A DNA stretch of 55,412 nucleotides from a virus (Duplodnaviria > Caudoviricetes), in the IMG/VR virus record IMGVR_UViG_3300030616_000028, positions 1-55,412 of that record, one strand, 5' to 3'. Of the stretch, positions 3,920-44,252 are shown piece by piece. Under the pieces are notes generated by a model. That model saw only the letters and a program-made list of their open reading frames with translations. It had not been told where the DNA came from and made no database searches. Made by a program: the position numbers and the translations under genes. Position 1 is the stretch's first letter, and each line of letters begins with the position of its first letter.

Positions 3920-5017
3920 ATGACCAAGCGACGAAGAACGTTCGCGATGGTCGAGCCGTACATCTGGGAGGACCCTGTATTTCGGTCGCTCCCCGAGTCG
4001 GCCCGATTCCTGTTCGTCCACCTCTTGACCTCTCCACGGTCGACGCGGTGCCCTGGCCTCCTCAAGGCATCGCCGATGATCGTGATGACGGACATCGGGT
4101 GGGACCGACCGCAGGACGGCGAGCTTCGATGGGCTGACGAGGAGGTACTCACGCGCGCGCTGAAACGGACGCGCTCCGCCTTCAAGCAGTTGGAGGCGAC
4201 CAGGCACCGCAGCGGCGTGCCGTGGGTCCTCGTCGATCACGGGAACAACCTGATTGCCCTTCCTCGTCGCGTCGCACACCTACTCCCCGACAACCGCAAC
4301 ATCGTCCAAGGCTGGCTGAACCAGCTACGCGAGATCCCTCCGTCGCTCGGGCGCGATGCGTGGCTCATCAGCACCTTCAGAATCCTCCGCGTTGCCTTCG
4401 GCCGCGATGACCCCCGGCTCAACCTGATGACCTCGGAGTATCGCACCGCACTGGAGCGCAGCGGAGCACAACTATCCGAATTTGCTGACGAACGTGAAAC
4501 GGTTACCCCAAACCCTTCCCCGAACGGTTCGGTGCGGGGTTCGGCAAAGATCTTAGATGGGAGATCGGAGATGGGAGATCTCTTAGTACAGACGGATCTG
4601 GCAATAGAGAAAAAGCACAGTAGGTCAGACGCACCGCGGCGCGACGAGCGCGCCCCGGCCTCCTCCTTCCCTCCTCCTGATGCTTCGGATCGGCTGCGAG
4701 CCATCTTCAAGGCCATGACCGAAGTGACGTTCCTCGTTCCTGGGAAGGGAGAGCAGACGATCTGGCAGAACGCAAAGCGCCCCGAGGCCCTCGCGACGAA
4801 GCTCGACGAATCATGTCCTGGCGTCAACGTGCCCGCGCTCATCGGGAAGCTCGGCGGCTGGACCTTCGCCAACCCGAAGCGCAGCAAGAGGGACCTCGCG
4901 CGGTTCGTGTGGAACGCAGCCAGCCGCGAGCAAGACAACCCACGTTCACCAGCAACCCAAGAGGCGTATAGACACGGCACCGATCTCGCCCAGAAGGTGA
5001 GAGGCCGAAGGAAGTGA
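3920..5017 (+). CDS. Phage replication initiator / replisome organizer-like protein
   Basis: N-terminal IWEDPVFRSLPESARFLFVHLLTSP; directly upstream of and overlapping dnaB. Confidence 0.6.
   Translation: MTKRRRTFAMVEPYIWEDPVFRSLPESARFLFVHLLTSPRSTRCPGLLKASPMIVMTDIGWDRPQDGELRWADEEVLTRALKRTRSAFKQLEATRHRSGVPWVLVDHGNNLIALPRRVAHLLPDNRNIVQGWLNQLREIPPSLGRDAWLISTFRILRVAFGRDDPRLNLMTSEYRTALERSGAQLSEFADERETVTPNPSPNGSVRGSAKILDGRSEMGDLLVQTDLAIEKKHSRSDAPRRDERAPASSFPPPDASDRLRAIFKAMTEVTFLVPGKGEQTIWQNAKRPEALATKLDESCPGVNVPALIGKLGGWTFANPKRSKRDLARFVWNAASREQDNPRSPATQEAYRHGTDLAQKVRGRRK
4470..4625. other. Candidate replication origin inside initiator gene
   Basis: Locally lower GC; direct repeat AGATGGGAGATC at 4555-4566 and 4569-4580; repeated AACGGTT and GGTTCGG; lambda O-like position. 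Confidence 0.3.
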
Positions 5018-6477
5018 GAATGGAAGGACGGATACCACCCTACGACGCCGAAGCAGAACAGGCATGCCTCGGCGCGGTACTACTCAACAACGATGCCTTG
5101 CCCATCGTGCGGACGATTCTCCGTGGTCCCGAGGACTTCTACCTCGAGGCGAACCGCATCATCTTCGCGGCGATGACCGAGCTGACCAGGAAGGGTTCGG
5201 CCGTCGATGCGGTGACGCTCGGTGGGCTACTCAAGGAGAACGGAGATCTGGAGAAGTGCGGAGGGCCGATGGTCATGAGCAAGCTGACCGACTCGGTCGC
5301 GACGGTAGCGAACGTCGGCCACTACGCGAAGATCGTCCGCGACCGCGCCTCGGTGCGCCGGATGATTTTCGCTGCACAGCAGATCGTCGCTGATGGATTC
5401 GGGCGACGCATCGAGGACGTCCCTACGTACCTTGCTGACGCTAGGAAGGCAATCACGGTTGCCTCGGCGACCGACGCCGGCGACGGCCCCGTGCAGCTCA
5501 AGGATGACCTCCATCGGGTGTTCTCGGAGATCGAATCTGGGAAGATGCCCGGAGGCCTGGTCGGGACAGGCATCGACGTCATCGACGAGCTGACTGGAGG
5601 ACTCTGGCCCGGGCTACTCACGATCATCGGTGCGCGGCCCTCGATGGGGAAGTCGGCCTTGTGCCTCAACATCGTGACGAACTGCGCACTCCAGGGTCGC
5701 CCCGCCCTCTACGTGCCGACCGAGGACGCGCGGGAGTACGTCGTCATGCGGGAGCTCGCCCGCTTCGGCAACGTGGACCTGAACGACCTCATGCTCCGCT
5801 CTGTCCACGATAGCGACTGGAAGGGACTCATCGACGGCATGAACAAGCTGCACGATCTCCCGCTCTGGGTAGACGACACGCCTGGCCTCTCCTCGGATCG
5901 CATCGCGCAGATCGCGGCCTTGCACAAGCAGGTCCACGGCCTCGACCTCCTCGTCGTTGACCACCTCGGGGAGCTAACGGATGATGGGGACAACCAGACG
6001 CAGTCTGTCGAGAACGCGGCGAAGGGACTCCGCGACATTGCGAAGGAGCTACAGATCCCCGTGCTCCTCGCATGCCAGCTCAACCGGCAGGTCGAGAACA
6101 GGAAGGACAAGCGGCCGACGCTGTACGACCTCCGTCAGAGCGGAGCCATCGAGCAGATTGCTCGCGTCGTGTGGTTCATGTATCGTCGCGGCTACTATCG
6201 TCAGGGATGTGAGGATGACCCCGATACTCAGCTCATCGTCGCCAAGGCGACGCACGGCAAGACAGGTACGATTCGGCTCTGGGCAGACATGGCGCGAATG
6301 TACCTCCGAGGATGGGACACGAGTACGGACGGCGTGTTCCCTGACGAGGACAGCAGCGGCTACGCTCCGCCCCCGAAGCAAGGCGGGAGCAGCAGCGATC
6401 ATCGCAATGGATTTTTCGACAACACTGGCCCCCCGTCTCGGGTAGGCGGGGGCAAGCATTGGACAGACGACTACTGA
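5014..6477 (+). CDS. dnaB: Replicative DNA helicase, DnaB family
   Basis: PPYDAEAEQACLG, Walker A GARPSMGKS, VVDHL, CQLNRQVE, DLRQSGAIEQ. Confidence 0.95.
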   Translation: MRMEGRIPPYDAEAEQACLGAVLLNNDALPIVRTILRGPEDFYLEANRIIFAAMTELTRKGSAVDAVTLGGLLKENGDLEKCGGPMVMSKLTDSVATVANVGHYAKIVRDRASVRRMIFAAQQIVADGFGRRIEDVPTYLADARKAITVASATDAGDGPVQLKDDLHRVFSEIESGKMPGGLVGTGIDVIDELTGGLWPGLLTIIGARPSMGKSALCLNIVTNCALQGRPALYVPTEDAREYVVMRELARFGNVDLNDLMLRSVHDSDWKGLIDGMNKLHDLPLWVDDTPGLSSDRIAQIAALHKQVHGLDLLVVDHLGELTDDGDNQTQSVENAAKGLRDIAKELQIPVLLACQLNRQVENRKDKRPTLYDLRQSGAIEQIARVVWFMYRRGYYRQGCEDDPDTQLIVAKATHGKTGTIRLWADMARMYLRGWDTSTDGVFPDEDSSGYAPPPKQGGSSSDHRNGFFDNTGPPSRVGGGKHWTDDY

Positions 6478-31855: not shown

Positions 31856-32269
31856 ATGAGGATCACGTGGAGGACCCTCGTCGGCATCCTGGTCTTGGCC
31901 CTGCTCGCGGTCGTGCTGATCGCGTGCGGGGCGGAGGACCCGAAGCCGACCGACGAGAAGGCGAAGGTGGACGCCGGCAAGAAGGCGCTGGCCCCCGCCG
32001 CGGCTCCCGAAGTGAAGCCGCAGCCGAAGGACGTCAAGGAGACCGTTCCGACCAGCGTGGACAAGGACACGGGGAAGCCGCAGGCGGCTCTCGGTGCCGA
32101 CGTGCTCGAGTGCTTCACGGTACGCGCTGCGGCGCTGTCCGAACGTAGCTCGTTGTCCGTACTGAGAAGCAACTACCAGAGCGAGGAAACACCGGAGCCG
32201 GAAGTCGTACTGCTCTGGCGCAACGTGCGCTCGGCCAGCTCCCCGATCCATCGGTGGATTCGAGCTTAG
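31856..32269 (+). CDS. Lipoprotein
   Basis: MRITWRTLVGILVLALLAVVLIA-C lipobox; strong RBS. Confidence 0.7.
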   Translation: MRITWRTLVGILVLALLAVVLIACGAEDPKPTDEKAKVDAGKKALAPAAAPEVKPQPKDVKETVPTSVDKDTGKPQAALGADVLECFTVRAAALSERSSLSVLRSNYQSEETPEPEVVLLWRNVRSASSPIHRWIRA

Positions 32270-32312
32270 TGAGAGCACCCGAGTCCGCCCCTCCCATACC
32301 CGACGATCCCAC

Positions 32313-32342
32313 TTGACACCGACCGAACCCCACGCGTATATA
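32313..32342 (+). promoter_or_regulatory. Sigma70-type promoter heading the packaging region
   Basis: TTGACA-N18-TATATA. Confidence 0.55.
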
Positions 32343-32351
32343 CAGGGGGTG

Positions 32352-32555
32352 ATGTCTATACGCGAACGGGTCCGAACGAAGCAGCTCAACATCCGGGTCA
32401 CGCCCGAGGAGCTGGACACGTTCAAGAAGGCAGCGGAGCAGAACAACGTCTCCGTGACCGAGCTCGTCGTCCAGGCGACCCTCGACAAGATCAACGACGA
32501 ACGGATGGTGTTCAAGGGAACGCTGCGCCGCATGCGGGAGGCAGGGGAGATATGA
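32352..32555 (+). CDS. Ribbon-helix-helix regulator
   Basis: TKQLNIRVTPEELDTFKKAAEQNNVSVTELV. Confidence 0.75.
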   Translation: MSIRERVRTKQLNIRVTPEELDTFKKAAEQNNVSVTELVVQATLDKINDERMVFKGTLRRMREAGEI

Positions 32556-33229
32556 CCGCGAAGAAGAAGACCAAGGCCCCGAAGAAAACTGGCGGTTCGG
32601 CCAAACCGACATCGAAGGGACGGGTTACCAAAACAGGGCGCAAGCCAGATCCAAAGGCGGCGAAGAAAAAATCGGCACCGCAGCGGCGGAAGAAGTCCCC
32701 GAACATCAAGGCCGAGACGTACAACGCGCTCCAGACGGCGTACTTCGAGAGGCAGTCCATCGAGGGTGCGGCGAAGACGGTGGGCGTGACGAAGAACACC
32801 GCCCGATACTACATCGACGGACCAGGCAAGCCCGAGGTCGGGATGGTGCCGATCAAGCAGCTCTGGCTCGACGTGCAGATGGAGGCGCAGGAGAAGCGGC
32901 AAATGACGCTGCTGCGGTTCCACGAGGAGCAGACGAAGGAGCTGGAGGAGGTCCTCAATACCGTGTCGGCCGAGTTGAAGCTCATCCGTGCCTCCGTGCT
33001 GCGGCGGGTCAAGCGGTTCAAGGACAGCGGCGGGGTAGACATCGAGACGGGCGCGAGCCTCGGTCAGGCGCTCAAGAGCTACGAGCGCGTTTCGCGTCTG
33101 ATGGAGCGGTTCCTCGGCGCACCGGACGCAACGCTCGAGCACCGCGGTGAGGACAGGTACCGGCACTGGACCGACGAGGAGATCGTCGAGTTCGCCGAGA
33201 CGGGGAAGCTCCCCGATCATGCGAGGTGA
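32552..33229 (+). CDS. Putative terminase small subunit (Lys-rich tail, HTH, helical oligomerisation region)
   Basis: SIEGAAKTVGVTKNTARYY HTH; C-terminal WTDEEI; position upstream of terL; no direct homology test. Confidence 0.5.
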   Translation: MTAKKKTKAPKKTGGSAKPTSKGRVTKTGRKPDPKAAKKKSAPQRRKKSPNIKAETYNALQTAYFERQSIEGAAKTVGVTKNTARYYIDGPGKPEVGMVPIKQLWLDVQMEAQEKRQMTLLRFHEEQTKELEEVLNTVSAELKLIRASVLRRVKRFKDSGGVDIETGASLGQALKSYERVSRLMERFLGAPDATLEHRGEDRYRHWTDEEIVEFAETGKLPDHAR

Positions 33230-33471
33230 TGATGAGCAAGCACATCCAGCTACTCGACGCGGCGCTCGGGGTGACTACGTCGCAACGCGGGAGCGAGTGT
33301 CAGGCCGATGCGGATAGCCTCCCTGGCTCCCCGCCTATCGGGACTGGGATCAACGGGGAGACGGCCCGTGCGGACCTGTACGCGCACCTCCTAATCGACG
33401 TCGTGCTGTCCAACCCTGGTGAAGGGTACGGGGACATCATCGCGCGACTGATTCGGGAGGAGGTCCGATGA
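33226..33471 (+). CDS. Hypothetical protein
   Basis: Coupled ORF. Confidence 0.45.
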   Translation: MMMSKHIQLLDAALGVTTSQRGSECQADADSLPGSPPIGTGINGETARADLYAHLLIDVVLSNPGEGYGDIIARLIREEVR

Positions 33472-33683
33472 CCTCGATCCCAATGCCGCCCGTAGTTGCC
33501 TCGGAGGACGTCCCAGAGGGCTGTGTACTCCTCGTGAGCGGGCTTCGGGAGTATTCCCCTGGGGAGGGAGATACACCGAACCACGAGGTTCCTGGGACTC
33601 GCTACGAGGACGAGGACGGGAGGGAGAAGGTGCTCGGCTTCCTCGATGCGGCGAGGGCCATCGACTGCGGTGTGGGGAGGTGA
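33468..33683 (+). CDS. Hypothetical protein
   Basis: GGAGG RBS, ATGA overlap. Confidence 0.45.
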   Translation: MTSIPMPPVVASEDVPEGCVLLVSGLREYSPGEGDTPNHEVPGTRYEDEDGREKVLGFLDAARAIDCGVGR

Positions 33684-34460
33684 GAGATCTTGGGAGCATT
33701 GAGACAAGTTGCTCAGTCCGCGTCAGTATCCCCGTTCCGGGGAGCTTCGTCGGTTCTGGCCGGCGGCGCGGGCGCGGGGACTGAGGGAACTTGGGCGTGG
33801 TGTTACAGTACGGACAATTCCGTACAGTATCCCACTACGAGGGCGGTTCAGCGCGGCTCGGCGCTTTGGGCGCAGCGCGGTAGTGAGGGATCTTGAGGGC
33901 ATTGAGGACAGTGTTCCAGGTTGGCACAGTATCCCCGCGCTCGGGGGGCGTAGCGCGGCCTGGCCTCCTCGGACCCGTGCGGGGGTGGGGGATACTGAGG
34001 ACAGTGGGACAATACCCTCAGGTTGCTACAGTATCCCGCGGCTCGGGGGTCCTCCGGGGGCCTTCTCCTCCTGAATCAGCGGCGCGGTGTCGCGCACTGA
34101 GGGATCTTGAGCAGGGTGAACAAGGTGGCTCAATGGCCCACGCCGAGGGCGGTCCTCCGGGGGTGGCTCGCCGGGAACCTGGGAGGGACTGTCGGATCTT
34201 GAGGTCATTGAGACAATGCCTCCAGGTTGCTACAGTACCCGGCCCATCGCTCGCCTCGGCGCGGCCTGGCCTCCTCGGAGAGCGGAGGAAGTGCAGCGGA
34301 TTGAGGGAAACTGGACAGGGTGTACAGGCTGCGACAGTATCCCCCAAACCCGAGGACCCGAGAGGGCAGATTCTCCCCGAAGCCGCTCGGCGGGGTGAGG
34401 GACTGAGGGCCACTGTAGGGACTGTCTCAATGGTGACAGTCCGCGACAGGATCTTCCAGG
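33681..34460. repeat. Degenerate tandem array, 8 units, 102-bp period
   Basis: CAGTATCCC-type core at 33724, 33825, 33927, 34029, 34131 (CAATGGCCC), 34233 (CAGTACCC), 34335, 34437 (CAGTCCGC); upstream TGAGGGATCTTGAG..CATTGAG(G)ACA..CAGGTTG submotifs. Confidence 0.85.
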
Positions 34461-34522
34461 GGCGCGAGGAGGCTCGTGGTTCGTCGGAGGGTCCGGGGGG
34501 ATAGCCCAGGGAGGGGCAGAGG

Positions 34523-35689
34523 GTGAACAACGAAGGAACAGCCTGCAGCGAGGCCCAGGCGAGGAACCAGGACGGGGTCATAGGCGAGGCCGAGCTACTC
34601 GACCGCCTTCGCTCGGCCAAGCGCGTCTTCCTCCTCGAGCCGCAGTACGGTCGGAAGTATCTGCCGCTGGGCCTGGCCAAGATCGCGACCTTCGTCAAGC
34701 AGAACGGCGGCCGGGTCTGGTTCGGGCGGAAGTACCTCGGCCCCCCGGTCGACCTCATCTGTGCCACCTCGCTGTTCACCTACGACTCCGCGAAGGTCCT
34801 CGCCTCGCTACGTAGCGCCGGCTCAGTAGCGAAGGACACGCCCATCATCGCGGGAGGGATCTACGCCTCGCTCATGTGGCGCCACCTCCTCTCAGAGATG
34901 GGCGACCGCGTCCTCGTCTTCCGAGGGTTCTCGAAGGTCCTCGACGAGCTCGTCCCCGACTACTCGTTGCGGTGGGGGATGGAGAAACCGTGGCCGTCGT
35001 TCTCGTTCACCTTCACGAGCCGCGGCTGCCCGAACCGCTGCGCGTACTGCGCCGTGTGGAGGATAGAGCAGGAGCCGTGGATCAACCCGCGCTGGCGCGA
35101 CCACATCCTACTCGAAAAGCCGTGCGCGATGATCTCCGACAACAACTTGAGCGCGGCTCCTCCCGAGCACCTGTACGCCGTGCTCGACTTCCTCGAGAAG
35201 ACGCAGCGGAAGGTGGTCTTCGACAACGGCTTCGACGTGAAGCACATCACCGACGAGATGGCCGCGCGCCTCGCACGTCTCCGCTTCGTCCGCACGGGGA
35301 TGAGGACAGCCTTCGACCGCATCGAGGAGGACGGCACATTTCAGATCGCAATCGAGCGGCTCATCGCCGCCGGCGTGAAGGCCTCCGACATCATGGTCTA
35401 CTCGCTGTTCAACTACCGCGACAAACCGCGCGAGGCGATGTACCGACTCAGCCAGATCCACCGCCTCGGCGCGAAGCCGTACCCGACGATGTACACCCCT
35501 CTCAACCAGAGTGCCCCACGGAGGGAGGAGCACCACGTTGGGAAGCACTGGACGTGGCCGCTCGTGCGGGCCTTCCGCGCGTACTGGCTGTTCGCGGGAG
35601 TCTACTCGAAGCACGACTTCGAGGAGTGGGCGAGAGGGCAGGACAAGATCGAACTGAGCGAGGAGGATTGGGCCGCATGGCACGCGTAA
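34523..35689 (+). CDS. Radical SAM protein with N-terminal cobalamin-binding-like domain
   Basis: PLGLAKIA, TSLFTY, AGGIYASL, TSRGCPNRCAYC, SDNN. Confidence 0.85.
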   Translation: MNNEGTACSEAQARNQDGVIGEAELLDRLRSAKRVFLLEPQYGRKYLPLGLAKIATFVKQNGGRVWFGRKYLGPPVDLICATSLFTYDSAKVLASLRSAGSVAKDTPIIAGGIYASLMWRHLLSEMGDRVLVFRGFSKVLDELVPDYSLRWGMEKPWPSFSFTFTSRGCPNRCAYCAVWRIEQEPWINPRWRDHILLEKPCAMISDNNLSAAPPEHLYAVLDFLEKTQRKVVFDNGFDVKHITDEMAARLARLRFVRTGMRTAFDRIEEDGTFQIAIERLIAAGVKASDIMVYSLFNYRDKPREAMYRLSQIHRLGAKPYPTMYTPLNQSAPRREEHHVGKHWTWPLVRAFRAYWLFAGVYSKHDFEEWARGQDKIELSEEDWAAWHA

Positions 35690-36714
35690 AGCAGGAGAGG
35701 ACCGAGGCGAAGGTATGGGGGTACGGTGAGCCGCCGAAGCCGCCGAAGATCATCAACCCGATAGGGCCGACCTCGCCGTGGGTATGGGCTATCGAACCGA
35801 CGCACGGGTGCAACCTGCGCTGCGGTCACTGTAGCTGCCGACTCGACCCGTTGCCGAAGCAGTACCACTTCATGGACGAGGCGACGTGGGAGGCGACCTG
35901 GAAGATCATCGCGGCGCTCTGCCCGACGCGCCGTGTTGACCTCGTGCTCGGCGGTGAGCCTACTCTCCACCCGGGCCTCCCCGAGTTCTTGTCCGTAGCG
36001 CGGGAGATCTCCCCGCTCTCGCAGATTCAGATCACGACCAACGGAACGCAGATCCTCAAGGGGCGGTGGACCTATCGCCAGCTCATCGAGGCCGGGGCCA
36101 ACATCGTCTACACGGATATGTACGGCTCGCGGGAGAAGTACATCGCCCTCGCTCATGATGCGGGGTATCCGTTCTATGAATACTACGATGCGCCCGAGGG
36201 TGCCTGGTCGCCGTGGACCTATCACGGGCCGCGCCTCAAGATGGTCGTCCTCCAAGAGCAACCGGAGAACTGGCCCGAGAGCCGCTTCCGCGCGGGGCTG
36301 ATGGGCACGTGGTACAACCACCTCGATTGGGAAGCCGCAGCACGCTTCGGACTCAAGGAGGTTACGAAGCCGCCCGCGCGCCGCTGCAACCAGCCGTTCC
36401 TCTACGTCCCGGTCGACTCGCGGGGTCGCTACCTGCTGTGCTGCCAGGACAACACGGGGGAGTCGACGAAGGAGAACTTCGGCACGGTCCACGACGGCCT
36501 CGACGGGTTCAAGCGGTACTGGTACGGAGACACGATGCAAGCGGTACGGCGCCGCCTGCGGGAGAAAGACCGGGAGAATGCATCGGACTACTGCCGGCGC
36601 TGCTGCGTCACGTTCTCGCGGTGCGACTTCAAGCACTGGAAGGACGAGGAAGTGAACCACGTCTGGGACGGCGAGAAGTGGACTCGGGTCAGCGACAAGA
36701 AGGGAGCGGAGTAG
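35677..36714 (+). CDS. Radical SAM protein with SPASM/Twitch domain
   Basis: CNLRCGHC, GGEPTLHP, TTNG, C..PF..LLCCQD..CRRC. Confidence 0.85.
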   Translation: MARVKQERTEAKVWGYGEPPKPPKIINPIGPTSPWVWAIEPTHGCNLRCGHCSCRLDPLPKQYHFMDEATWEATWKIIAALCPTRRVDLVLGGEPTLHPGLPEFLSVAREISPLSQIQITTNGTQILKGRWTYRQLIEAGANIVYTDMYGSREKYIALAHDAGYPFYEYYDAPEGAWSPWTYHGPRLKMVVLQEQPENWPESRFRAGLMGTWYNHLDWEAAARFGLKEVTKPPARRCNQPFLYVPVDSRGRYLLCCQDNTGESTKENFGTVHDGLDGFKRYWYGDTMQAVRRRLREKDRENASDYCRRCCVTFSRCDFKHWKDEEVNHVWDGEKWTRVSDKKGAE

Positions 36715-37529
36715 TGCCGAGGAACGACAGGCTGGAGTACGTCCAGCACGGTAGCGTACCGGGCAGGTTCAAGGCCATCGTCGGGAGGACGGGCAAGCCG
36801 GTTCTGACTAGCATGACGGTGTGCCGCTCGATACCTCTCCAGCACGGCGACGTCGTCGTCGACCTCGGGGCCTACGTCGGGCAGTACGCGCTCGCTGCGG
36901 CTCGCCTCCCCGTAAAGAAGGTGATCGCGTACGAGCCGACACCGGACACCTACCGCATCCTGGCTGAGTCAGCGCAGCCGAACCTCGAGGTCGTCAACGC
37001 GGCGGTGGTAGCCGACGAGCGCGAGTCGGTGGACTTCTACATCTCGGCCGGGATCGGCGTCTCGAACAGCGTGGTTCTCAAGCGCGGGAAGGAGAGGCGG
37101 GTGACCGTTCCCGCGGTGAGCTACGAGGAGGCGGTTCGCGGCGCGACCGTCGTGAAGATTGATGTCGAGGGAGCCGAGTACACCTACCCCATCGTCCAGC
37201 CATCGCTGCGTGCCATCATGATCGACTTCCACCCGATACGCGGGAGGAGGTGGGTCGAGCGGGCGCAAGAGATCATGTCCGAGATCGAAGCGGCAGGGTT
37301 CACCCCCGTCGTCGTCCCCAAGTTCAAGAGTGGGTTCGACTCGGACACGGCGGCGAGCTTCGTGCGGGACCTCCCCGTTGAGGGAGGGTTCGAACCCATG
37401 ATGAGCGGCGAGATGTGCTGCGGCTGCGGAGCAGAGATCCGTGGCGATGGACGCTCGCTCTGCTCGTCGTGTTGGGAGTTGTGGTCGAAGAAGCACCGCG
37501 AGGGATTCACCCTTGCGTCGGAGAAGTAA
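36714..37529 (+). CDS. FkbM-family SAM-dependent methyltransferase with C-terminal Zn finger
   Basis: VVDLGAYVG, VIAYEP, VKIDVEGAE; CCGCG..CSSC. Confidence 0.8.
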   Translation: MPRNDRLEYVQHGSVPGRFKAIVGRTGKPVLTSMTVCRSIPLQHGDVVVDLGAYVGQYALAAARLPVKKVIAYEPTPDTYRILAESAQPNLEVVNAAVVADERESVDFYISAGIGVSNSVVLKRGKERRVTVPAVSYEEAVRGATVVKIDVEGAEYTYPIVQPSLRAIMIDFHPIRGRRWVERAQEIMSEIEAAGFTPVVVPKFKSGFDSDTAASFVRDLPVEGGFEPMMSGEMCCGCGAEIRGDGRSLCSSCWELWSKKHREGFTLASEK

Positions 37530-37570
37530 CCAGCACGCCGCACGGCGTCGGGAAAGGAAAGGACAGGCAC

Positions 37571-38338
37571 ATGGCTCAGAGCAAGAAGACCCCCGAGGCG
37601 AGTGGGGTGAAAGTCTACTGCGCGCACGACAAGGTCGTCGACATCACGACCATCGTCCCGAACCCCCGGAACCCCAACAAGCACCCCGACAACCAGATCG
37701 AGCTGCTCGCCAAGATCATCATGAACCAGGGCTGGCGGAATGCGATCACGGTGTCGACTCGCTCGGGCTTTATCGTTCGCGGTCACGGTCGCTACGAGGC
37801 CGCGAAGCAGATGCAGGTCGACGAGGTTCCCATCGACTTCCAGGACTACGCCTCGGACGCCGAGGAGTGGGCCGACCTCATCGCGGACAACCGCATCGCG
37901 GAGCTATCGAAGATGGACAGCGCCGGCCTCAAGGATCTGCTCAACGAGATCGACACGGGCGACTTCGACATGGACCTCACGGGGTTCGACCACAACTCGC
38001 TCGAGAACCTGATGACGCACGACGGCTACTTCGACGCGAACGACCCCGACGCCGAGTGGGAGGGGATGCCCGAGTGGGGGCAGGAGGACACGCGGCCGCA
38101 CCGCTCGATCATCGTTCACCTGAAGGACGAGCAGGCCGTCGAGGATTTCAAGAAGCTCGTCGGGCAGGACTTCTCGGACGGGGCGAAGTGGATCTTCTGG
38201 CCCGACGTGGACATCGACCACGTGCGAGGAGAGCGGTGGGTGTCCGAGGACGAGTTGCCCGAGGACTACGATCCCGACGCGGAGGGCAGCGAGGAGGAGG
38301 AGGAAACGGCCGACGACGCGGACGACCAGGAGGAGTAG
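37571..38338 (+). CDS. ParB/Srx-like N-terminal domain protein fused to a small EWEGMPE domain
   Basis: PNPRNPNKHP, IVRGHGRYEAA, IADNRIAE; C-terminal EWEGMPEWGQED..IIVH..F..LVGQ..WIFWP. Confidence 0.85.
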   Translation: MAQSKKTPEASGVKVYCAHDKVVDITTIVPNPRNPNKHPDNQIELLAKIIMNQGWRNAITVSTRSGFIVRGHGRYEAAKQMQVDEVPIDFQDYASDAEEWADLIADNRIAELSKMDSAGLKDLLNEIDTGDFDMDLTGFDHNSLENLMTHDGYFDANDPDAEWEGMPEWGQEDTRPHRSIIVHLKDEQAVEDFKKLVGQDFSDGAKWIFWPDVDIDHVRGERWVSEDELPEDYDPDAEGSEEEEETADDADDQEE

Positions 38339-38339
38339 C

Positions 38340-39221
38340 ATGCAGCCTCGCTTCCCGCTCTACATTCCATCGAAGGGACGGCACGAGTACCTCATCACAA
38401 TGAAGGCGCTCGACCGCATGCGCGTCCCCTATCGCGTCGTCGTCGAGCCGCAAGAGGCGGAGGCGTACGCGAAGGCACTCGGCGACGAGAGCAAGGTGCT
38501 CGTGCTCGACATGGAGTACAAGCGCACCTACAAAACGTGCGCTACCGACGGCGACCAGATGAGGACCGGCGCGGGCGCTGCACGGAACTTCATTTGGGAC
38601 CATGCGATCTCCGAAGGTCACGAGTGGCACTGGGTCATGGATGACAACATTCGGAAGTTCTACCGGACGTGGAAGAATCGCCAGGTCGCCCTCGGCGACG
38701 GCACGGGCTTCCGCTTGATGGAGGACTTCTGCCTTCGCTACGAGAACATCGCGATGGCTGGCCCAAACTACTTCATGTTCGTGCCTCGCAAGGTGAAGGT
38801 CGGCCCCGTCGTTTTCAACACGCGGATCTACTCGTGCAACCTCATTCGGAACGACGTCCCGTTCCGCTGGCGCGGGAGGTACAACGAGGACACGATCCTG
38901 TCGCTCGACATGCTGAAGGCGGGGTGGTGCACAGCGCAGTTCAACGCCTTCCTTCAGGAGAAGCTACGCACGCAGTTGGTGAAGGGCGGCAACACGGAGG
39001 AAATCTACGGCGGCGGCACGTTGCCCAAGTCGCAGATGTTGGTCGACCAGCACCCCGACGTCGCGCGCCTCCAGTGGAGGTTCGGGAGGCACCATCACTA
39101 CGTCGACTATCGGCCGTTCAAGAGGAACAAGCTGCGGCGGAAACCAGACGCGGAGATCCCCGAGGGGACGCACGACTACGGCATGCGTCTGGTGCCTCGG
39201 GAAGTAGCGGAGAATCGGTGA
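38340..39221 (+). CDS. GT-A glycosyltransferase, TAGT/GREB1-like phage family
   Basis: YIPSKGR, ARNFIWD, WVMDDNI, NTRIYSC, WRGRYNED, KGGNT. Confidence 0.75.
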   Translation: MQPRFPLYIPSKGRHEYLITMKALDRMRVPYRVVVEPQEAEAYAKALGDESKVLVLDMEYKRTYKTCATDGDQMRTGAGAARNFIWDHAISEGHEWHWVMDDNIRKFYRTWKNRQVALGDGTGFRLMEDFCLRYENIAMAGPNYFMFVPRKVKVGPVVFNTRIYSCNLIRNDVPFRWRGRYNEDTILSLDMLKAGWCTAQFNAFLQEKLRTQLVKGGNTEEIYGGGTLPKSQMLVDQHPDVARLQWRFGRHHHYVDYRPFKRNKLRRKPDAEIPEGTHDYGMRLVPREVAENR

Positions 39222-40834
39222 ACGCGGTAGCCCAGGATGCGGAGGTCGCGCCGAGTCTTTCTCGGCAGTACGCGCCTCCTCGGGGACACCTCCCGAGGAT
39301 CACTCGGGCCTCGTACCTTGAGACCAAATCCCGTTCGAAGCTCATCGAGAGGGCCGAAGCACTACGAAGGCGGCAGATCGAGAAAGCGAGGGAGTCGGCG
39401 TCGGCGTTCATGGAGTACTGCTTCGTCGACGAGGCTGACGGCTCCCCGTACAAGCAGCAGTGGTTCCACGACGAGTGGCACCACGCCTGGGACCGCTACC
39501 AGCGCGTGATGGTCATCGCGCCTCGCGACCACGCGAAGACGAGCAACGTCGTCGGTCGGACCATCTGGGAGCTGGGGAACAATCCGAACCTCCGAGTCAA
39601 GATTGTCTGCGCCTCCGACGGCCGTGCGAAGGAGAGGCTGTTCGAAGTAGACCAGCACATCAGGACGAACCCCCGCGTCCTCGAAGTGTTCCCTCACCTC
39701 CTCCCCGATCCAGACGCACCGTGGAACGCACACCGCCTGGTCCTCCGGCGGACGGCGCGGCACAGAGACGCATCGGTCGAAGCTCTCGGTATCACCTCGA
39801 CGGCAACGGGCGGTCGTGCGGACCTCCTCATCGCGGACGACGTCGTGGACCGCCGCAACGCGCTGTCCTTCCCCGCGCTCCGTGAGCAGATCAAACAGGC
39901 GTGGCGATCGGACTGGACGAACCTCCTCGAGCCGGACTCCCGCGTCTGGTACATCTGCACACTTTGGTCGCCGTCGGACCTCTCGCACGAGCTGATGGAG
40001 AACAAGGCCTATCGGGTCCTTCGGTACGACATCGATGACGACTTCGGCTCCATCTGGCCGGCGAAGTGGAGCGAGTACCATCTCCGCATGCGGTACGAGG
40101 AGATTGGGAGCATCGAATTCAACCGCGCGTTCCGCAACCAGGCCATCGACACGGAGTCGGCGCTCGTGCAGCCAGAGTGGTTCGCCTTCGCGGACCTCCG
40201 CGAGGACAAGCGGTTCGCTGAGATCATCGAGAGCGAGGCGGCGATCTTCCTCACCTCCTACGACCCCGCGGGGACGCCGAACCCGAGGGCGAAGAAGAAC
40301 AACGACCAGGACTTCACGGGCGCTTGCATCGGCGCGGTAGACCGGGAGCAGGGGAACGTCTACATCGTCGACGCATGGCACGAGCGCATGAGCGTCAAGG
40401 CACTCGCGGACAGGATCTTTGCGGAGGCCCAAACCTACCAACCTTGGCAAGCTCTCATCGAGAAGGTGGGACTCGCAACGGTGGACGAGTGGGTCATAAA
40501 CGAGCACCCTGAGATGATGAGCCTCGTGAAGGTAACGAAGCCGCGTGTCTCGAAGCAGATGCGGCTCCTCGGCACGACCCCGTTGCTGGAGAAAGGCAAG
40601 ATCATTTTCTCCTCTCACCTTGACCCGAACGGGGAGCTGTTCGATGGGCGGCGCGGGTCCTTGGTGGACGAGCTGATTGAATTCCCGTTCGGGAAGCACG
40701 ACGACATGGTGGACGCGTTCTCTCAGATGATCGGTGCGGCCCGGGCGCACTTCCTTGACGTGGACGCTGACGGAGGTGAAGATGTACCAGAGATCCACTT
40801 CGGCGACGAGGGCGACGATGAGTACCCGTTCTGA
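39218..40834 (+). CDS. terL: Terminase large subunit
   Basis: Walker A APRDHAKT, TGGRADLLIADD, nuclease SYDPA and HDDMVDA; GTGA overlap with the glycosyltransferase. Confidence 0.93.
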   Translation: MNAVAQDAEVAPSLSRQYAPPRGHLPRITRASYLETKSRSKLIERAEALRRRQIEKARESASAFMEYCFVDEADGSPYKQQWFHDEWHHAWDRYQRVMVIAPRDHAKTSNVVGRTIWELGNNPNLRVKIVCASDGRAKERLFEVDQHIRTNPRVLEVFPHLLPDPDAPWNAHRLVLRRTARHRDASVEALGITSTATGGRADLLIADDVVDRRNALSFPALREQIKQAWRSDWTNLLEPDSRVWYICTLWSPSDLSHELMENKAYRVLRYDIDDDFGSIWPAKWSEYHLRMRYEEIGSIEFNRAFRNQAIDTESALVQPEWFAFADLREDKRFAEIIESEAAIFLTSYDPAGTPNPRAKKNNDQDFTGACIGAVDREQGNVYIVDAWHERMSVKALADRIFAEAQTYQPWQALIEKVGLATVDEWVINEHPEMMSLVKVTKPRVSKQMRLLGTTPLLEKGKIIFSSHLDPNGELFDGRRGSLVDELIEFPFGKHDDMVDAFSQMIGAARAHFLDVDADGGEDVPEIHFGDEGDDEYPF

Positions 40835-41985: not shown

Positions 41986-42303
41986 ATGGCATTCCCCGAG
42001 ATCAGAGTCTACGAGTTTGACGAGAACCCCGCTGGGTCGCTACCGCTCGGAGCAGGGCACGAGCACGACGTCCGGCAGATGTCGGAGAAGGGATACGAGT
42101 TCGAGACTGCTGTCGGCTGCGCGGCGGTCTTCACGCTCGAAGGTTCCGTGAGCGGCAACGTGTGGTCCGCAATCCAGGCTGGCCTCGGCGCCGCCGATGC
42201 CCAGGGAACGATCCCCGCGCACTACAACTACGTCCGCGTCAACGGGACGGCCGCAGGAGTCTTGAACGGCGCACGGCTCCGCATCGCCGGCAAGGTCCTC
42301 TGA
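41986..42303 (+). CDS. Small beta-rich putative virion protein
   Basis: FTLEGSVSGNVW..YNYVRV; precedes portal. Confidence 0.5.
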   Translation: MAFPEIRVYEFDENPAGSLPLGAGHEHDVRQMSEKGYEFETAVGCAAVFTLEGSVSGNVWSAIQAGLGAADAQGTIPAHYNYVRVNGTAAGVLNGARLRIAGKVL

Positions 42304-44252
42304 TGCCGGGAGCCGCGAAAAAGGGCAAGAGTGACCAAGGGCGGGGAGGGGCAGACCTCCGCACGCTCTTGGCCAAGGCAGCGGTGATGACCGGCCGGGA
42401 GATCGACGAGTCGGCCGCACTCGTCGCCATGAATTCGCGCCGCGAGGTCTACGGCAGTGAGGGAGCGGTGGAGCCTCCGTACGACCCCGAGTCGCTCCTC
42501 AACTACATCGAGTTGACCCCGCACCTCGCCCCGAATATCGCGGCCTACCAGACCAACGTCGAGGGCTACGGATACCAGGCGCTCGCCATCGAGTCGTGGA
42601 TGGATGACCTCGACAGTGAGGAGGCGTGGGAGGCCGTCCGCAACGCGCTCCAGATCGAGCGGTGGGCCGAGGAGGAGGAGGCCGCGCTCGAGAGCGGTGA
42701 GGCCGAGAAGCAGGACGAAGCGGAGGGCGAGCCAGACGACACGGAGACCGACCCCGATCTCGACGGGGAGGGAGGCACCCCTGTCGACGACGAAGACGGC
42801 GAGGTGACCGACGAGGAGGTCGAGGCCGTAATCGAGAAGCTGAAGGTCCAACTACGGCGCGAGCAGTTCATATTCGAGGCGTTCTTCAAGAACTGCTGCT
42901 CGACGATGAGCTTTATCAAGCTGCGGCGGATCACGCGCTACGACATCGAGGGCCACGGCTGGGGTGCCTGGGAGATGCTGAACGACGGCTACGGCCGGCT
43001 CAAGCGGCTCAACTACATCCCCGGCTACACGGTGCGCCCGCTGCGTGACGAGGGCGAGCTGGTGGAGGTCACGGAACCCGATCCCGTGACGCCTCTTTCG
43101 GAGGGGCGCGAGGTCACGGTCCACCGTCGCTTCCGCCGCTATGTGCAGATCGTCGGCGACCGCAAGTCGTTCTTCAAGTCGCCGGGAGATCCGCGCGTCA
43201 TCAGCCGCACGACGGGAAAGGTCTACGACTCCATCCAGGAGATGCGCAAGCCGCAGGACCAGGACGGCGAGGGCAAGGATGCGAAGGAGGCGACTGAGCT
43301 GATCTACATCCCTCTGCACGACCCTCGAACGCCGTGTCCTCCTCCGCGATGGATCGGGAACCTGCTCGCCGTGCTAGGCGTACGCGAGGCTGACGAAACC
43401 AATTTCTTCTACCTCGACTCGTCAGCTATCCCTCCGGGCATCCTGTTCGTCGCAGGCGGGAAGGTCCCACGCGACATGAAGGACAGGCTCGAGCAGCGCA
43501 TGACCCAGGAGTTCGGAGGGAGCGAGAACCGGCACAAGATCCTCGTCGTCGAGGCGCACCCCATGAAGGCGGCGAAGAACGACGACCGCACGCTGATGCC
43601 GACGCTCGAATTTGAGTCGCTGCGGGACGCGCACCAGAACGACGCCACCTTCACCAACTACGACGAGCGCAGCGCGGATCGGATCGGTGCATCCTTCCGC
43701 CTTCCTCCGATGCTGCGCGGGTACACGCCGAAGAACCTCAACCGCGCCACCGCGGTCGCTGCCCTGGCCTTCGCCGAGCAGCAGGTCTTCGAGCCAGAGC
43801 GCGAGGACATCGACTGGGTGGTGAACAAGTACATCATGCCGCGCATCGGGGTCGTGCTGCACAAGTTCCGCAGCAACTCACCGCCGACTCGTAGCCCGGA
43901 GGAAATCGCCGAGCTCATCAAGGTCGCGGCGCCGCACGGCGGCTTCCTCCCGCACGAGATCCGCTCGCTGCTCGCGGACGCGCTCAACCGCTCCCTCGCC
44001 AAGGTCGAGGAGGAGTGGTCGCGCTGGCCGATGCCGATGACCCTGGCCGGGATCGGGGAGGGCGGCATGGTCACCCCCGACGAGAGCGACGAGGAGCGCA
44101 CGGCCTCCCTCGCGGAGCTGACGGCTCGGGTCGAGCAGATGCAGACGCGGGTCGAGACGATCCTCACCGAGGAGCTTCGTTCGGCAGGGTTCGACATGGA
44201 CGTCAAGGCCTCGCTCAAGGATCTCGACGAGCTGGAGGTCGAGGATGAGTAG
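42303..44252 (+). CDS. Portal protein (PBSX/XkdE-like)
   Basis: VEPPYDP, GWGAWE..RLNYIP, AIPPGIL, DATF, FRLPP, NRATA, VFEPE. Confidence 0.88.
   Translation: MPGAAKKGKSDQGRGGADLRTLLAKAAVMTGREIDESAALVAMNSRREVYGSEGAVEPPYDPESLLNYIELTPHLAPNIAAYQTNVEGYGYQALAIESWMDDLDSEEAWEAVRNALQIERWAEEEEAALESGEAEKQDEAEGEPDDTETDPDLDGEGGTPVDDEDGEVTDEEVEAVIEKLKVQLRREQFIFEAFFKNCCSTMSFIKLRRITRYDIEGHGWGAWEMLNDGYGRLKRLNYIPGYTVRPLRDEGELVEVTEPDPVTPLSEGREVTVHRRFRRYVQIVGDRKSFFKSPGDPRVISRTTGKVYDSIQEMRKPQDQDGEGKDAKEATELIYIPLHDPRTPCPPPRWIGNLLAVLGVREADETNFFYLDSSAIPPGILFVAGGKVPRDMKDRLEQRMTQEFGGSENRHKILVVEAHPMKAAKNDDRTLMPTLEFESLRDAHQNDATFTNYDERSADRIGASFRLPPMLRGYTPKNLNRATAVAALAFAEQQVFEPEREDIDWVVNKYIMPRIGVVLHKFRSNSPPTRSPEEIAELIKVAAPHGGFLPHEIRSLLADALNRSLAKVEEEWSRWPMPMTLAGIGEGGMVTPDESDEERTASLAELTARVEQMQTRVETILTEELRSAGFDMDVKASLKDLDELEVEDE

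Follow-up and report, generated by a model that had tools for sequence, protein, structure and literature searches.

The window analysed here, the full 55,412 nucleotides of one uncultured phage record, contains a tandem array of eight head-to-tail units on the + strand (33674-34488, 815 bp). The array is real, non-coding and held in exact register, its columns are differentially conserved, and it is positioned ahead of a cassette of DNA-modification genes. Tentatively, and with confidence clearly short of even, we regard it as a candidate DNA-level control array for that cassette, composed of multiple protein-binding sites. Phage genomes are compact, and 815 bp of non-coding DNA is therefore unlikely to be idle. 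The present value of the array is that of a well-defined, testable object, not of a mechanism.

The extent of the array was established from autocorrelation, unit-profile matches and an identity matrix. A sequence-only reading of this DNA had described a strictly phased array whose cores are separated by one step of 101 bp and six of 102 bp. Both the phasing and the steps are real, and its coordinates hold apart from the start at 33681, which is the TGA stop codon of an upstream small ORF and lies inside the first unit; the array begins at about 33674. Unit u1 (33674-33774) is 101 bp long, and u2 (33775-33876), u3 (33877-33978), u4 (33979-34080), u5 (34081-34182), u6 (34183-34284), u7 (34285-34386) and u8 (34387-34488), the most degenerate, are each 102 bp, all on the + strand; the single base pair in u1 is the only net length change among them. 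Autocorrelation, proposed earlier as a check, gave self-identities of 0.486, 0.476 and 0.489 at lags 102, 204 and 306, compared with 0.346 and 0.312 at the neighbouring lags 101 and 103. Across 300 mononucleotide shuffles, the highest-scoring lag averaged 0.329 (sd 0.007) and never exceeded 0.361. A unit profile produced eight + strand matches on the array (E 1e-12 to 2e-19). Mean identity of each unit to the others is 0.47-0.53 for u1 to u7 and 0.36 for u8, with individual pairs ranging from 29 to 68%, and the units are thus too diverged for Tandem Repeats Finder, which did not report the array.

Five of the eight units carry the nine-base core CAGTATCCC exactly (33724, 33825, 33927, 34029 and 34335), and degenerate cores occur in the same phase in the remaining three (CAATGGCCC at 34131, CAGTACCCG at 34233 and CAGTCCGCG at 34437), at the eight positions where they had been placed. 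Together with a left arm, the core forms a 9-bp inverted repeat in each unit, GGGATCTTG...31 bp...CAGTATCCC. The perfect inverted pair claimed for u4 is present (GGGATACTG at 33989 and CAGTATCCC at 34029; 33989-34037, unstranded, 31 bp between the arms). Across the units, 76.4% of the 72 cells of the inverted 9-mers are paired, as opposed to 29-49% when the partner is slid. A profile of the conserved block matched its own reverse strand in u6 (5e-07), u4 (5e-04) and u1 (0.008), and ungapped dyad symmetry rose clearly above shuffles only in u2, u5 and u6. The inverted 9-mers alternate along the array with two spacer lengths, 31 and 52 bp.

Each unit divides, as had been described, into a block of TGAG and ACAG submotifs and a GC-rich variable half. 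The conserved half, defined by in-register alignment, column counts and the stem count, spans columns 9-59 (33885-33935, + strand, in u3), where it contains the left arm GGGATCTTG, TGAG submotifs, CAGGTTG and the core CAGTATCCC, in the same columns in every unit. TGAG occurs at unit phases 6-8, 16 and 25-27 and ACAG at 29-30, 38, 48 and 58, and the best-conserved columns of the unit are TGAGG and ACAGT. This half is 58.5% GC with a pairwise identity of 0.54. The variable half, columns 60-102 (33936-33978, + strand, in u3), is 74.7% GC; GC content and a shifted-alignment test define it, its pairwise identity being about 0.40 in register, 0.28-0.35 when shifted by 1 to 5 bases and 0.31 when shuffled. 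The 21-mer GCGCGGCCTGGCCTCCTCGGA is indeed found at both 33953 and 34259. The motifs are strand-asymmetric (TGAGG 10 vs 1, ACAGT 9 vs 3), and G outweighs C on the sense strand (0.38 vs 0.27).

Transitions and transversions among the units stand at 277:437, near the 1:2 expected at saturation, so that the variable positions look randomised; substitution there is saturated, yet no unit has left the 102-bp register. Length and register are far better kept than sequence, as the sequence-only reading had proposed, which argues for a constraint on spacing. Given the conserved columns and a variable half that aligns only in register, selection appears to act on both sequence positions and spacing. 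The description of the sites as helically phased is not supported by the numbers. The submotifs recur every 9-9.3 bp or so (power 1.6 vs 0.74±0.17 in shuffles), among the harmonics of 102 the 11th and 12th are strongest, with the 10th half as strong, and 102 bp corresponds to 9.7 turns of 10.5-bp DNA, so that only overwinding or wrapping of the DNA would bring adjacent cores onto one face.

The claim that the array is non-coding was borne out, as neither the codon-position signal nor the homologues of a protein-coding repeat were found. GC at the three codon positions falls within 0.55-0.78, whereas the flanking genes have a GC3 of about 0.9. Mismatches in the 21 pairs of u2 to u8 are spread evenly by column modulo 3 (363/386/370), and no homologue of the 203-aa ORF over the array was found at E <= 0.01 among 1298 candidates. 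These data make it very unlikely that the array is a translated spacer or repeat protein, with ribosomes reading ORFs 33690-33896 and 33893-34504 and a 34-codon unit keeping the frame open. Such a reading would draw on 102 bp being 34 codons, on a + strand ORF chain that begins 6 nt past the upstream stop, ends 18 nt short of the radical SAM start and includes a TTGA stop/start overlap (33893-33896), and on u2, which alone is open in the frame imposed on it by the 1-bp deletion in u1. Long open runs can, however, arise by chance: a stop-free run of at least 615 nt occurred in 9.6% of 3000 column-wise shuffles, and by our own count 24 of 48 unit-frames are open.

Upstream of the array, a sigma-70-like promoter on the + strand (TTGACA-N18-TATATA, 32313-32364) is conserved among related loci. 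Its -35 TTGACA is kept in all seven loci compared, and a GTATA-type -10 in most of them, having diverged in L074. With no + strand terminator-like site predicted in 32000-36000, this promoter likely starts a transcription unit containing the array. An inverted repeat, CGCGTATA / TATACGCG, covers the -10 and the start codon of a ribbon-helix-helix (RHH) protein gene (32352-32555, +; Pfam NikA-like 3.2e-08, DUF6290 2e-06), and both of its matches within the window are at the promoter. The RHH start is likely ATG 32352 rather than TTG 32313. The RHH protein, suggested earlier as a binder of the array, thus appears to have a putative operator of its own at its own promoter, one dissimilar to the array, which argues against that role.

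The next gene (32552-33229, +) encodes a 225-aa protein, modelled by AlphaFold (pLDDT 61) as a basic tail, a three-helix HTH and a long helix. In layout the model may be TerS-like, a putative and unproven resemblance. The protein had no solved relative by sequence search, no fold match at E <= 0.001 in PDB or BFVD, no sequence match to a terminase family, Pfam included, and no tblastn match against 'phages'. None of its 23 homologues has a functional name (three are labelled hypothetical protein) or a Pfam domain, and its top structure-atlas look-alikes, which serve as leads only, are HTH proteins labelled ECF sigma factor or transposase. An identical copy of the protein is encoded on a longer contig of 191,388 bp, and its closest relative is 77% identical; a look-up of its protein cluster yielded no names. 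In related loci the RHH gene invariably accompanies the 225-aa gene, and the two lie upstream of TerL. Two small ORFs from the ORF list (33226-33471 and 33468-33683, both +) lie directly upstream of the array, the stop codon of the second falling in u1. The first has homologues in L070, L072, L077 and L081; the second had no tblastn match in the 14 related loci.

Downstream, 34 bp separate the end of u8 from the first radical SAM start. The DNA-modification cassette (34523-39221) encodes, all on the + strand, radical SAM (34523-35689), radical SAM/SPASM (35677-36714), an FkbM-type methyltransferase (36714-37529), a ParB-N-like protein (37415-38338; ParB_N at 21.2 bits, below the Pfam cut-off of 26.3) and a glucosyltransferase (38340-39221). 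It is followed by the large terminase subunit gene (TerL, 39218-40834, +), which was recognised by tblastn to annotated terminase large subunits (E 1e-14 to 7e-18, 21-25% identity) and is 76-80% identical to its relatives. The sequence-only reading had also raised a loading site for the ParB-like protein. That protein is of the type that accompanies phage DNA-modification genes, and the ten neighbouring proteins scanned gave no match to a ParA/ParM-type NTPase, both of which speak against such a site. The replication genes, a DnaB-like helicase (5014-6477) and RecE/RecT (at 1.4-3.9 kb), are 27 kb from the array.

A look for equivalent arrays near terS in related phages had been suggested as a check. 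None of the 14 related loci, some of which are the same contig present in two collections, had a unit-profile match at E <= 10, though orthologues of the 225-aa protein (52-66% identical) and/or TerL are kept. Between the 225-aa gene and TerL, relatives exchange one DNA-modification set for another: L002 and L069 carry radical SAM and a C5 methyltransferase there, and L070 carries QueC/QueD/transglycosylase. At the place of the array, L002 and L077 have spacers of 195 bp and 150 bp. These looked unit-like by eye in an alignment and were rejected, their local alignment scores being equal to those of shuffled controls; as they are no closer to the units than shuffles, they give no support to an origin of the array by amplification of a native control region.

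Searches further afield gave a similar picture. No similar DNA was found in 'phages' for 32300-36800 or in 'plasmids' for the array, a similarity search of its own record returned the array itself only, and the motif has no occurrence elsewhere in the 55-kb record. Pattern scans returned 46, 19 and 71 stretches from the viral collection (all but one with a single match), 0 from the metagenome collection and 18 single matches from the genome collection. When the unit and block profiles were run on the fetched stretches, the array's own locus (L001) matched and none of the others resembled a unit; one set of stretches gave no row at E <= 1 and another a single row at E 0.69. Relatives of TerL were not found in the genome collection, nor was anything found in the viral collection with the radical SAM protein alone as query. 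The array is thus an orphan, found in a single uncultured record, and the literature searched held no description of a comparable 102-bp phage array, which is not proof of absence from print. Among 401 genomes sampled from a single phylum, none has more than eight copies of the core 11-mer, a count close to that of a control word; five other genomes have 0-4 copies each. As for the host phylum, the matches of the sugar epimerase gene are spread over mixed phyla.

As a cis-acting DNA element, the array would present eight copies of a composite protein-binding module and would form a control region at the head of the DNA-modification cassette. Each module would offer the inverted 9-mer pair GGGATCTTG ... 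31 bp ... CAGTATCCC, with same-strand TGAG and ACAG submotifs between and around the 9-mers at one per roughly 9.3 bp, and would be closed by a GC-rich spacer of 42 bp whose length may matter and whose sequence may not. A putative DNA-binding protein of the phage or the host might bind the modules cooperatively, and weak -35/-10-like hexamers in the module might let RNA polymerase act as well. The net effect would be to set cassette expression independently of the long operon from the 32313 promoter. Protein binding, the identity of the binder and the effect on cassette expression are all things that we infer. If a protein does read the array, it would constitute an unusually long-period binding lattice; lying at the very point of exchange of anti-restriction DNA-modification cassettes in this phage lineage, it could show control of the cargo separate from the late operon. 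Several results count against a control array. It is absent from 14 of 14 related loci, and since the motif is confined to it within the 55-kb record, there is no regulon to back a regulator. Because 10.5-bp turns do not divide 102 bp evenly and the submotifs recur at about 9.3 bp, cooperative binding on one face is not the obvious geometry. Finally, the array is seemingly inside a + strand transcription unit, with a promoter upstream and no predicted terminator, and a role at the RNA level would fit this position equally well.

Such a role is possible, although we lean against it. The units would be transcribed in the long + strand operon and form hairpins between a left arm and the neighbouring core, which could act as REP/BIME-like intercistronic stabiliser or processing sites, as a sponge or as a processed small-RNA array. 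In addition to the conserved promoter and the lack of a predicted + strand terminator-like site in 32000-36000, the strand-asymmetric motifs and the G-rich, C-poor sense strand are consistent with it, as are a 9-bp stem kept in 76% of cells, double-sided changes in four cells at three pairs, a U.G at one pair in five of eight units and the hairpin seen in single-unit folds of u2, u4 and u6. However, no consensus structure was obtained in any register on either strand, folding z-scores of single units run from -2.1 to +1.25 (mean about -0.6), and the covariation is not significant, 33 of 500 shuffles reaching the observed double changes. In our own alignment count, A.C cells (G.U on the opposite strand) are about as common as G.U, which indicates no strand preference. 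Known RNA families gave no match at gathering score over the whole window and one chance-level row (E 1.3) in 33200-34700, so no Rfam family supports an RNA element, and an exact 102-nt register is not an obvious requirement for a sponge or stabiliser. No tRNA or tmRNA was found. It is rather improbable that the units are eight true promoters whose sole function is transcription initiation, for strong or early expression of the cassette. The u6 sequence TTGAGA-17-TACAGT, with a TG before the -10, passes a sigma-70 scan, five of eight units have by eye TTGAGN or similar 16-17 bp before NACAGT, and modification genes plausibly need expression untied from the late operon. Yet a single site scored, in one of eight units, where 0.4 would be expected by chance, and conservation peaks on TGAGG and ACAGT, not on the TTG of the -35 or the first T of the -10. 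The phage's conserved promoter at 32313 is a far better match to consensus, and promoters do not need a fixed 102-bp spacing.

We consider it unlikely that the array is a selfish or neutral repeat with no function for the phage, whether a REPIN/BIME-like cluster or a tandem duplication in decay, carried along at a junction of variable cargo. Its alternating inverted 9-mers with spacers of 31 and 52 bp, its extragenic position at the edge of the swap region and its absence from relatives as an orphan would suit such an origin, and the most degenerate unit is the terminal u8, as is typical of the edge of a tandem array. Ordered tandem REPIN/REP clusters are described in Pseudomonas in PMC3116915. 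The REPIN clusters described there are, however, nearly identical, compared with 29-68% identity between the units here; the core 11-mer is near its control word in the 401 genomes and scarce in the five others, the viral, metagenome and genome scans yielded only single matches or none and nothing unit-like, and saturated substitution without indels beside conserved columns is not neutral decay. A pac-like packaging recognition region, on whose modules the 225-aa HTH protein would load as the small terminase, perhaps with DNA wrapped around a ring, is also doubtful. The array follows this HTH/coiled-coil gene at 445 bp and precedes TerL by 4.7 kb, all on one strand, no other TerS candidate directly precedes TerL in the window, L002/L069 or L070, and wherever a related locus includes both regions, the RHH and 225-aa pair keeps its synteny with TerL. 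The N-terminal HTH and following long helix of the model resemble small terminases, and one atlas structure row, a lead only, reads 'Terminase small subunit family' (TM 0.32). Against this, the protein matches no terminase family or fold, relatives with orthologues of both it and TerL at the identities given above do not have the array, and the nucleosome-like model of TerS wrapping is itself disputed, according to PMC9611059. Of the earlier proposal of a pac or terminus region wrapped by TerS, the position therefore stands, while the missing terminase match and the absence of the array from all 14 relatives tell against the rest. If the HTH neighbour is a small terminase, the array bears on how terminases recognise DNA. 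In a still more specific and highly improbable version, each unit would be one superhelical turn around an 11- or 12-subunit ring of the 225-aa protein, and eight stacked turns would make a nucleosome-like filament for packaging initiation or DNA marking; if true, this would be direct sequence evidence for the disputed small-terminase wrapping model. An 11- or 12-subunit ring would place one HTH contact per submotif step of 8.5-9.3 bp, and the 11th and 12th harmonics are those that dominate the array. A Dam-regulated reading like that of P1 pac was rejected, as GATC is not enriched (6.1 per kb in the array vs 7.4 per kb in the window).

Several known systems share features with the array. Among plasmid centromeres, F sopC repeats a 43-bp unit in tandem, with SopB binding an inverted repeat in every copy, and R1 parC consists of 11-bp iterons bound by an RHH protein. 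The array likewise has co-oriented tandem units with an inverted repeat or short phased submotifs in each, and it is non-coding and adjoins genes for small DNA-binding proteins, including the ParB-N-like one. Unlike these centromeres, its unit is 102 bp with about 50% identity between copies, no ParA/ParM-type match was seen among the ten neighbours scanned, it is absent from relatives, and the ParB-like protein is of the DNA-modification-linked kind. The lambda cosB R sites, SPP1 pacL/pacR and the P1 pac hexamers extend over tens to a few hundred bp and have no long tandem period. They too consist of short motifs repeated in non-coding DNA, near terminase genes, on the packaging strand and close to an HTH gene, but the array is 815 bp in eight units, its TerS is putative and relatives lack it. 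Iteron origins and P4 crr (120-bp direct repeats) combine a conserved core, a variable spacer and strict spacing, a combination the array shares. It differs from iteron origins in lacking an AT-rich stretch for unwinding (every 300-bp window of 33400-34750 has a GC of 0.63-0.67), in its neighbours, which are RHH, HTH and radical SAM genes and not initiator or replication genes, and in a period five times longer than that of usual iterons. In type III toxin-antitoxin systems, ToxI arrays have near-identical units of about 36-45 nt followed by a terminator and a ToxN/AbiQ-type endoribonuclease gene. Here, too, tandem non-coding repeats lie directly upstream of a same-strand gene in a phage, but the units are 102 nt and 29-68% identical, no + strand terminator-like site is predicted and the downstream gene is radical SAM.

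As described in PMC3116915, REP, BIME and REPIN elements are extragenic, with alternating inverted palindromic arms and regular spacers, sometimes in ordered tandem and often within operons, and REPs occur as hundreds of near-identical dispersed copies per genome together with a RAYT gene. The array shares with them extragenic, imperfect palindromic units in alternating orientation; unlike them, it occupies one locus with diverged units, and its core is not enriched in the 406 genomes examined, outside of which the host may lie. A CRISPR array was considered and rejected. Its near-identical repeats of about 23-55 bp contrast with conserved halves that average 54% identity, and the variable halves are not unrelated spacers, being 0.40 identical in register vs 0.31 when shuffled, with an identical 21-mer in two of them.

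The repeat array is genuine. It occupies window positions 33674-34488 on the + strand and consists of eight head-to-tail units, the first of 101 bp and the seven others of 102 bp. The window, which is the complete IMG/VR record, is 55,412 bp long with 64.7% GC and is classed as linear and ~57% complete. Autocorrelation gave array self-identities of 0.486, 0.476 and 0.489 at lags 102, 204 and 306, and off register these fell to 0.346 (lag 101) and 0.312 (lag 103); the best lag per shuffle averaged 0.329 (sd 0.007, 300 shuffles). A profile of the eight units recovered 8/8 units on the + strand, with E values of 1e-12 to 2e-19. Tandem Repeats Finder did not report the array because unit-to-unit identity is only 29-68%. 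On recheck, all coordinates from the sequence-only reading were correct: of the eight positions at which it placed the core CAGTATCCC, five carry that sequence and three carry degenerate versions, the inverted pair of unit 4 has no mismatches, and the 21-mer repeat occurs in two copies 306 bp apart.

Each unit comprises a conserved half (columns 1-60; pairwise identity 0.54, 58.5% GC) and a variable half (columns 61-102; identity 0.40, 74.7% GC). The best-kept columns are TGAGG (18-22), CA (41-42), G47, ACAGT (50-54) and CC (57-58). TGAG falls at unit phases 6-8, 16 and 25-27 and ACAG at 29-30, 38, 48 and 58, and almost all submotif copies lie on the + strand (TGAGG, 10 vs 1; ACAGT, 9 vs 3). 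Fourier analysis placed the period inside the unit at ~9-9.3 bp, and single conserved halves had a power of 1.6 at 9-9.5 bp, compared to 0.74+-0.17 in shuffles. Among the harmonics of 102, the 11th (power 6.1) and 12th (5.8) exceeded the 10th (3.0), a geometry that differs from simple one-face phasing and does not bear out the helically phased protein sites proposed earlier.

The consensus at columns 11-19, GGGATCTTG, recurs at columns 51-59 as its inverted complement, CAGTATCCC. In the ungapped, in-register alignment of the units, these arms pair in 76.4% of 72 cells; shifting the partner arm by 1-3 columns lowers this to 29-49%. Units 6, 4 and 1 additionally give reverse-strand matches to the block profile. 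The array as a whole thus consists of 9-mers in alternating orientation, separated by 31 or 52 bp, with submotifs on one strand lying between them.

The array is apparently under selection. Its variable positions look saturated because transitions and transversions among the central units (277:437) are near the ~1:2 of randomised sites. The variable halves nonetheless align in exact register only (identity 0.41 at shift 0 vs 0.28-0.35 at shifts of 1-5 bases), and the sole net change in length is a single base in unit 1. Neutral decay to such depth would be expected to scatter indels through the units, so constraint seems to act on the spacing itself and on ~30-35 columns, to the extent that general indel rates apply here. 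Unit 8, at the edge of the array, is the most degenerate (mean identity 0.36 to the other units).

All genes in the neighborhood lie on the + strand. A near-consensus promoter, TTGACA-N18-TATATA (32313-32346, +), precedes the gene for a ribbon-helix-helix (RHH) protein (ATG 32352 to 32555), the gene for a 225-aa protein with a basic tail, three-helix HTH and long helix (32552-33229), and two small ORFs (33226-33471 and 33468-33683). Downstream of the array are genes for a radical SAM enzyme (from 34523), a radical SAM/SPASM enzyme (35677-36714), an FkbM-type methyltransferase (36714-37529), a ParB-N-like protein (37415-38338), a glucosyltransferase (38340-39221), the large terminase subunit TerL (39218-40834) and the portal (42162-44252). 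The promoter TTGACA is kept in 7/7 related loci compared, and the GTATA-type -10 has diverged in one (L074). Within 32313-32364, an inverted repeat, CGCGTATA/TATACGCG, covers the -10 element and the RHH start codon and has no further occurrence in the window. Transcription of the RHH/225-aa operon probably begins, under autoregulation, at the promoter at 32313, and the likely RHH start codon is that at 32352 rather than TTG 32313. The RHH protein seems to use a separate operator, different from the array. The array is probably transcribed in the sense direction, since 32000-36000 holds no terminator-like site on the + strand.

Searches of viral and metagenome collections with TerL and the 225-aa protein gave 14 related loci on at least 10 different contigs, judging by name and length, some contigs being counted from both collections. 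Where a locus includes these regions, they run from RHH through the 225-aa protein and a variable stretch (0.03-6 kb) to TerL, a 204-aa protein and the portal. The variable stretch encodes a radical SAM enzyme, ParB-like protein and C5 methyltransferase in L002/L069; QueD, QueC, a transglycosylase and a ParB-like protein in L070; a ParB-like protein immediately after the 225-aa gene in L074; and two radical SAM enzymes, the FkbM methyltransferase, the glucosyltransferase and the ParB-N-like protein in the window (33229-39218). The window, L069, L070 and L074 all carry a ParB-N-like gene, and the ParB-like protein is of the modification-linked kind. Because different DNA-modification sets are found here among relatives, the interval from the 225-aa gene to TerL is a cargo swap site headed by the array. 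The radical SAM N-terminus has a Cys-x2/3-Cys stretch (CGTC, CGSTC) in L002 (7495-7620) and L077 (2545-2640); that of the window (34523-34640) is shorter and lacks it. The window TerL has <= ~25% identity to that of any isolated phage in the collection and 76-80% within a set of uncultured contigs (GC 48-69%).

The array is an orphan. The unit profile matched 0/14 related loci, even at E <= 10, and, L080 excepted, none of the 14 had a comparable autocorrelation peak. Exact-pattern scans of viral, metagenome and genome collections found no additional copy, and the core 11-mer was enriched in 0/406 genomes searched. At the array's place, L077, the closest layout, has a 150-bp spacer and L002 one of 195 bp; both resemble the units no more than their shuffled counterparts do. 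L080 has a strong 18-bp-period repeat (126-750; self-identity up to 0.55) unrelated to the 102-bp unit.

The array is not a gene, as the sequence-only reading held. Third-position GC is ~0.9 in flanking genes; in the array all three codon positions fall within 0.55-0.78 with no consistent frame. Differences among units 2-8 are evenly distributed over the three column classes (363/386/370), and none of 1298 candidates was a homologue of the longest + strand ORF (33893-34504, 203 aa) at E <= 0.01. The unit length equals 34 codons, and a + strand ORF chain, 33690-33896 and 33893-34504 with a TTGA stop/start overlap, covers the whole array (33690-34504). A translated spacer is highly improbable, however: 9.6% of 3000 column-wise shuffles reached a stop-free run of at least the observed 615 nt, which is not significant. 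By our count 24/48 unit-frames are open, and the frame that results from the 1-bp deletion in unit 1 is open in unit 2 alone; open frames across the array are expected from base composition.

Among the remaining readings, a candidate DNA-level binding array fits best because it accounts jointly for conserved cores, sequence-free spacers of fixed length, and inverted and direct submotifs. We hold it tentatively, partly because the geometry is not simple one-face phasing. Given the array's position, control of the DNA-modification cassette (34523-39221) would be its simplest role. An array of RNA hairpins would suit a strand-asymmetric, G-rich sequence taken as transcribed in sense, with a conserved stem, but it is doubtful: a search for a consensus fold found none, folding z-scores were unremarkable, and covariation was weak (33/500 shuffles equally good). 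A selfish cluster is unlikely; the architecture is that of REPIN/BIME clusters as described in PMC3116915, but the array lacks their high copy number and near-identical units. The pac/TerS site suggested earlier is quite unlikely. Its position and the TerS-like domain order of the 225-aa protein, which make up the case for it, stand, but no terminase match was obtained for that protein, the relatives lack the array, and the wrapping model on which the idea depends is itself disputed, according to PMC9611059. A pure promoter array is little favored and very unlikely. The array is related in kind to known binding-site and palindromic-unit arrays, and is unusual in its period, divergence and strict register.

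A protein identical to the 225-aa product (P0002) is recorded on a 191,388-bp contig, and relatives' contigs span 88-106 kb; the window may represent part of a longer contig. GATC is not enriched in the array (6.1 per kb) and occurs 409 times in the whole window (7.4 per kb, by our arithmetic ~2.3x the base-composition expectation).
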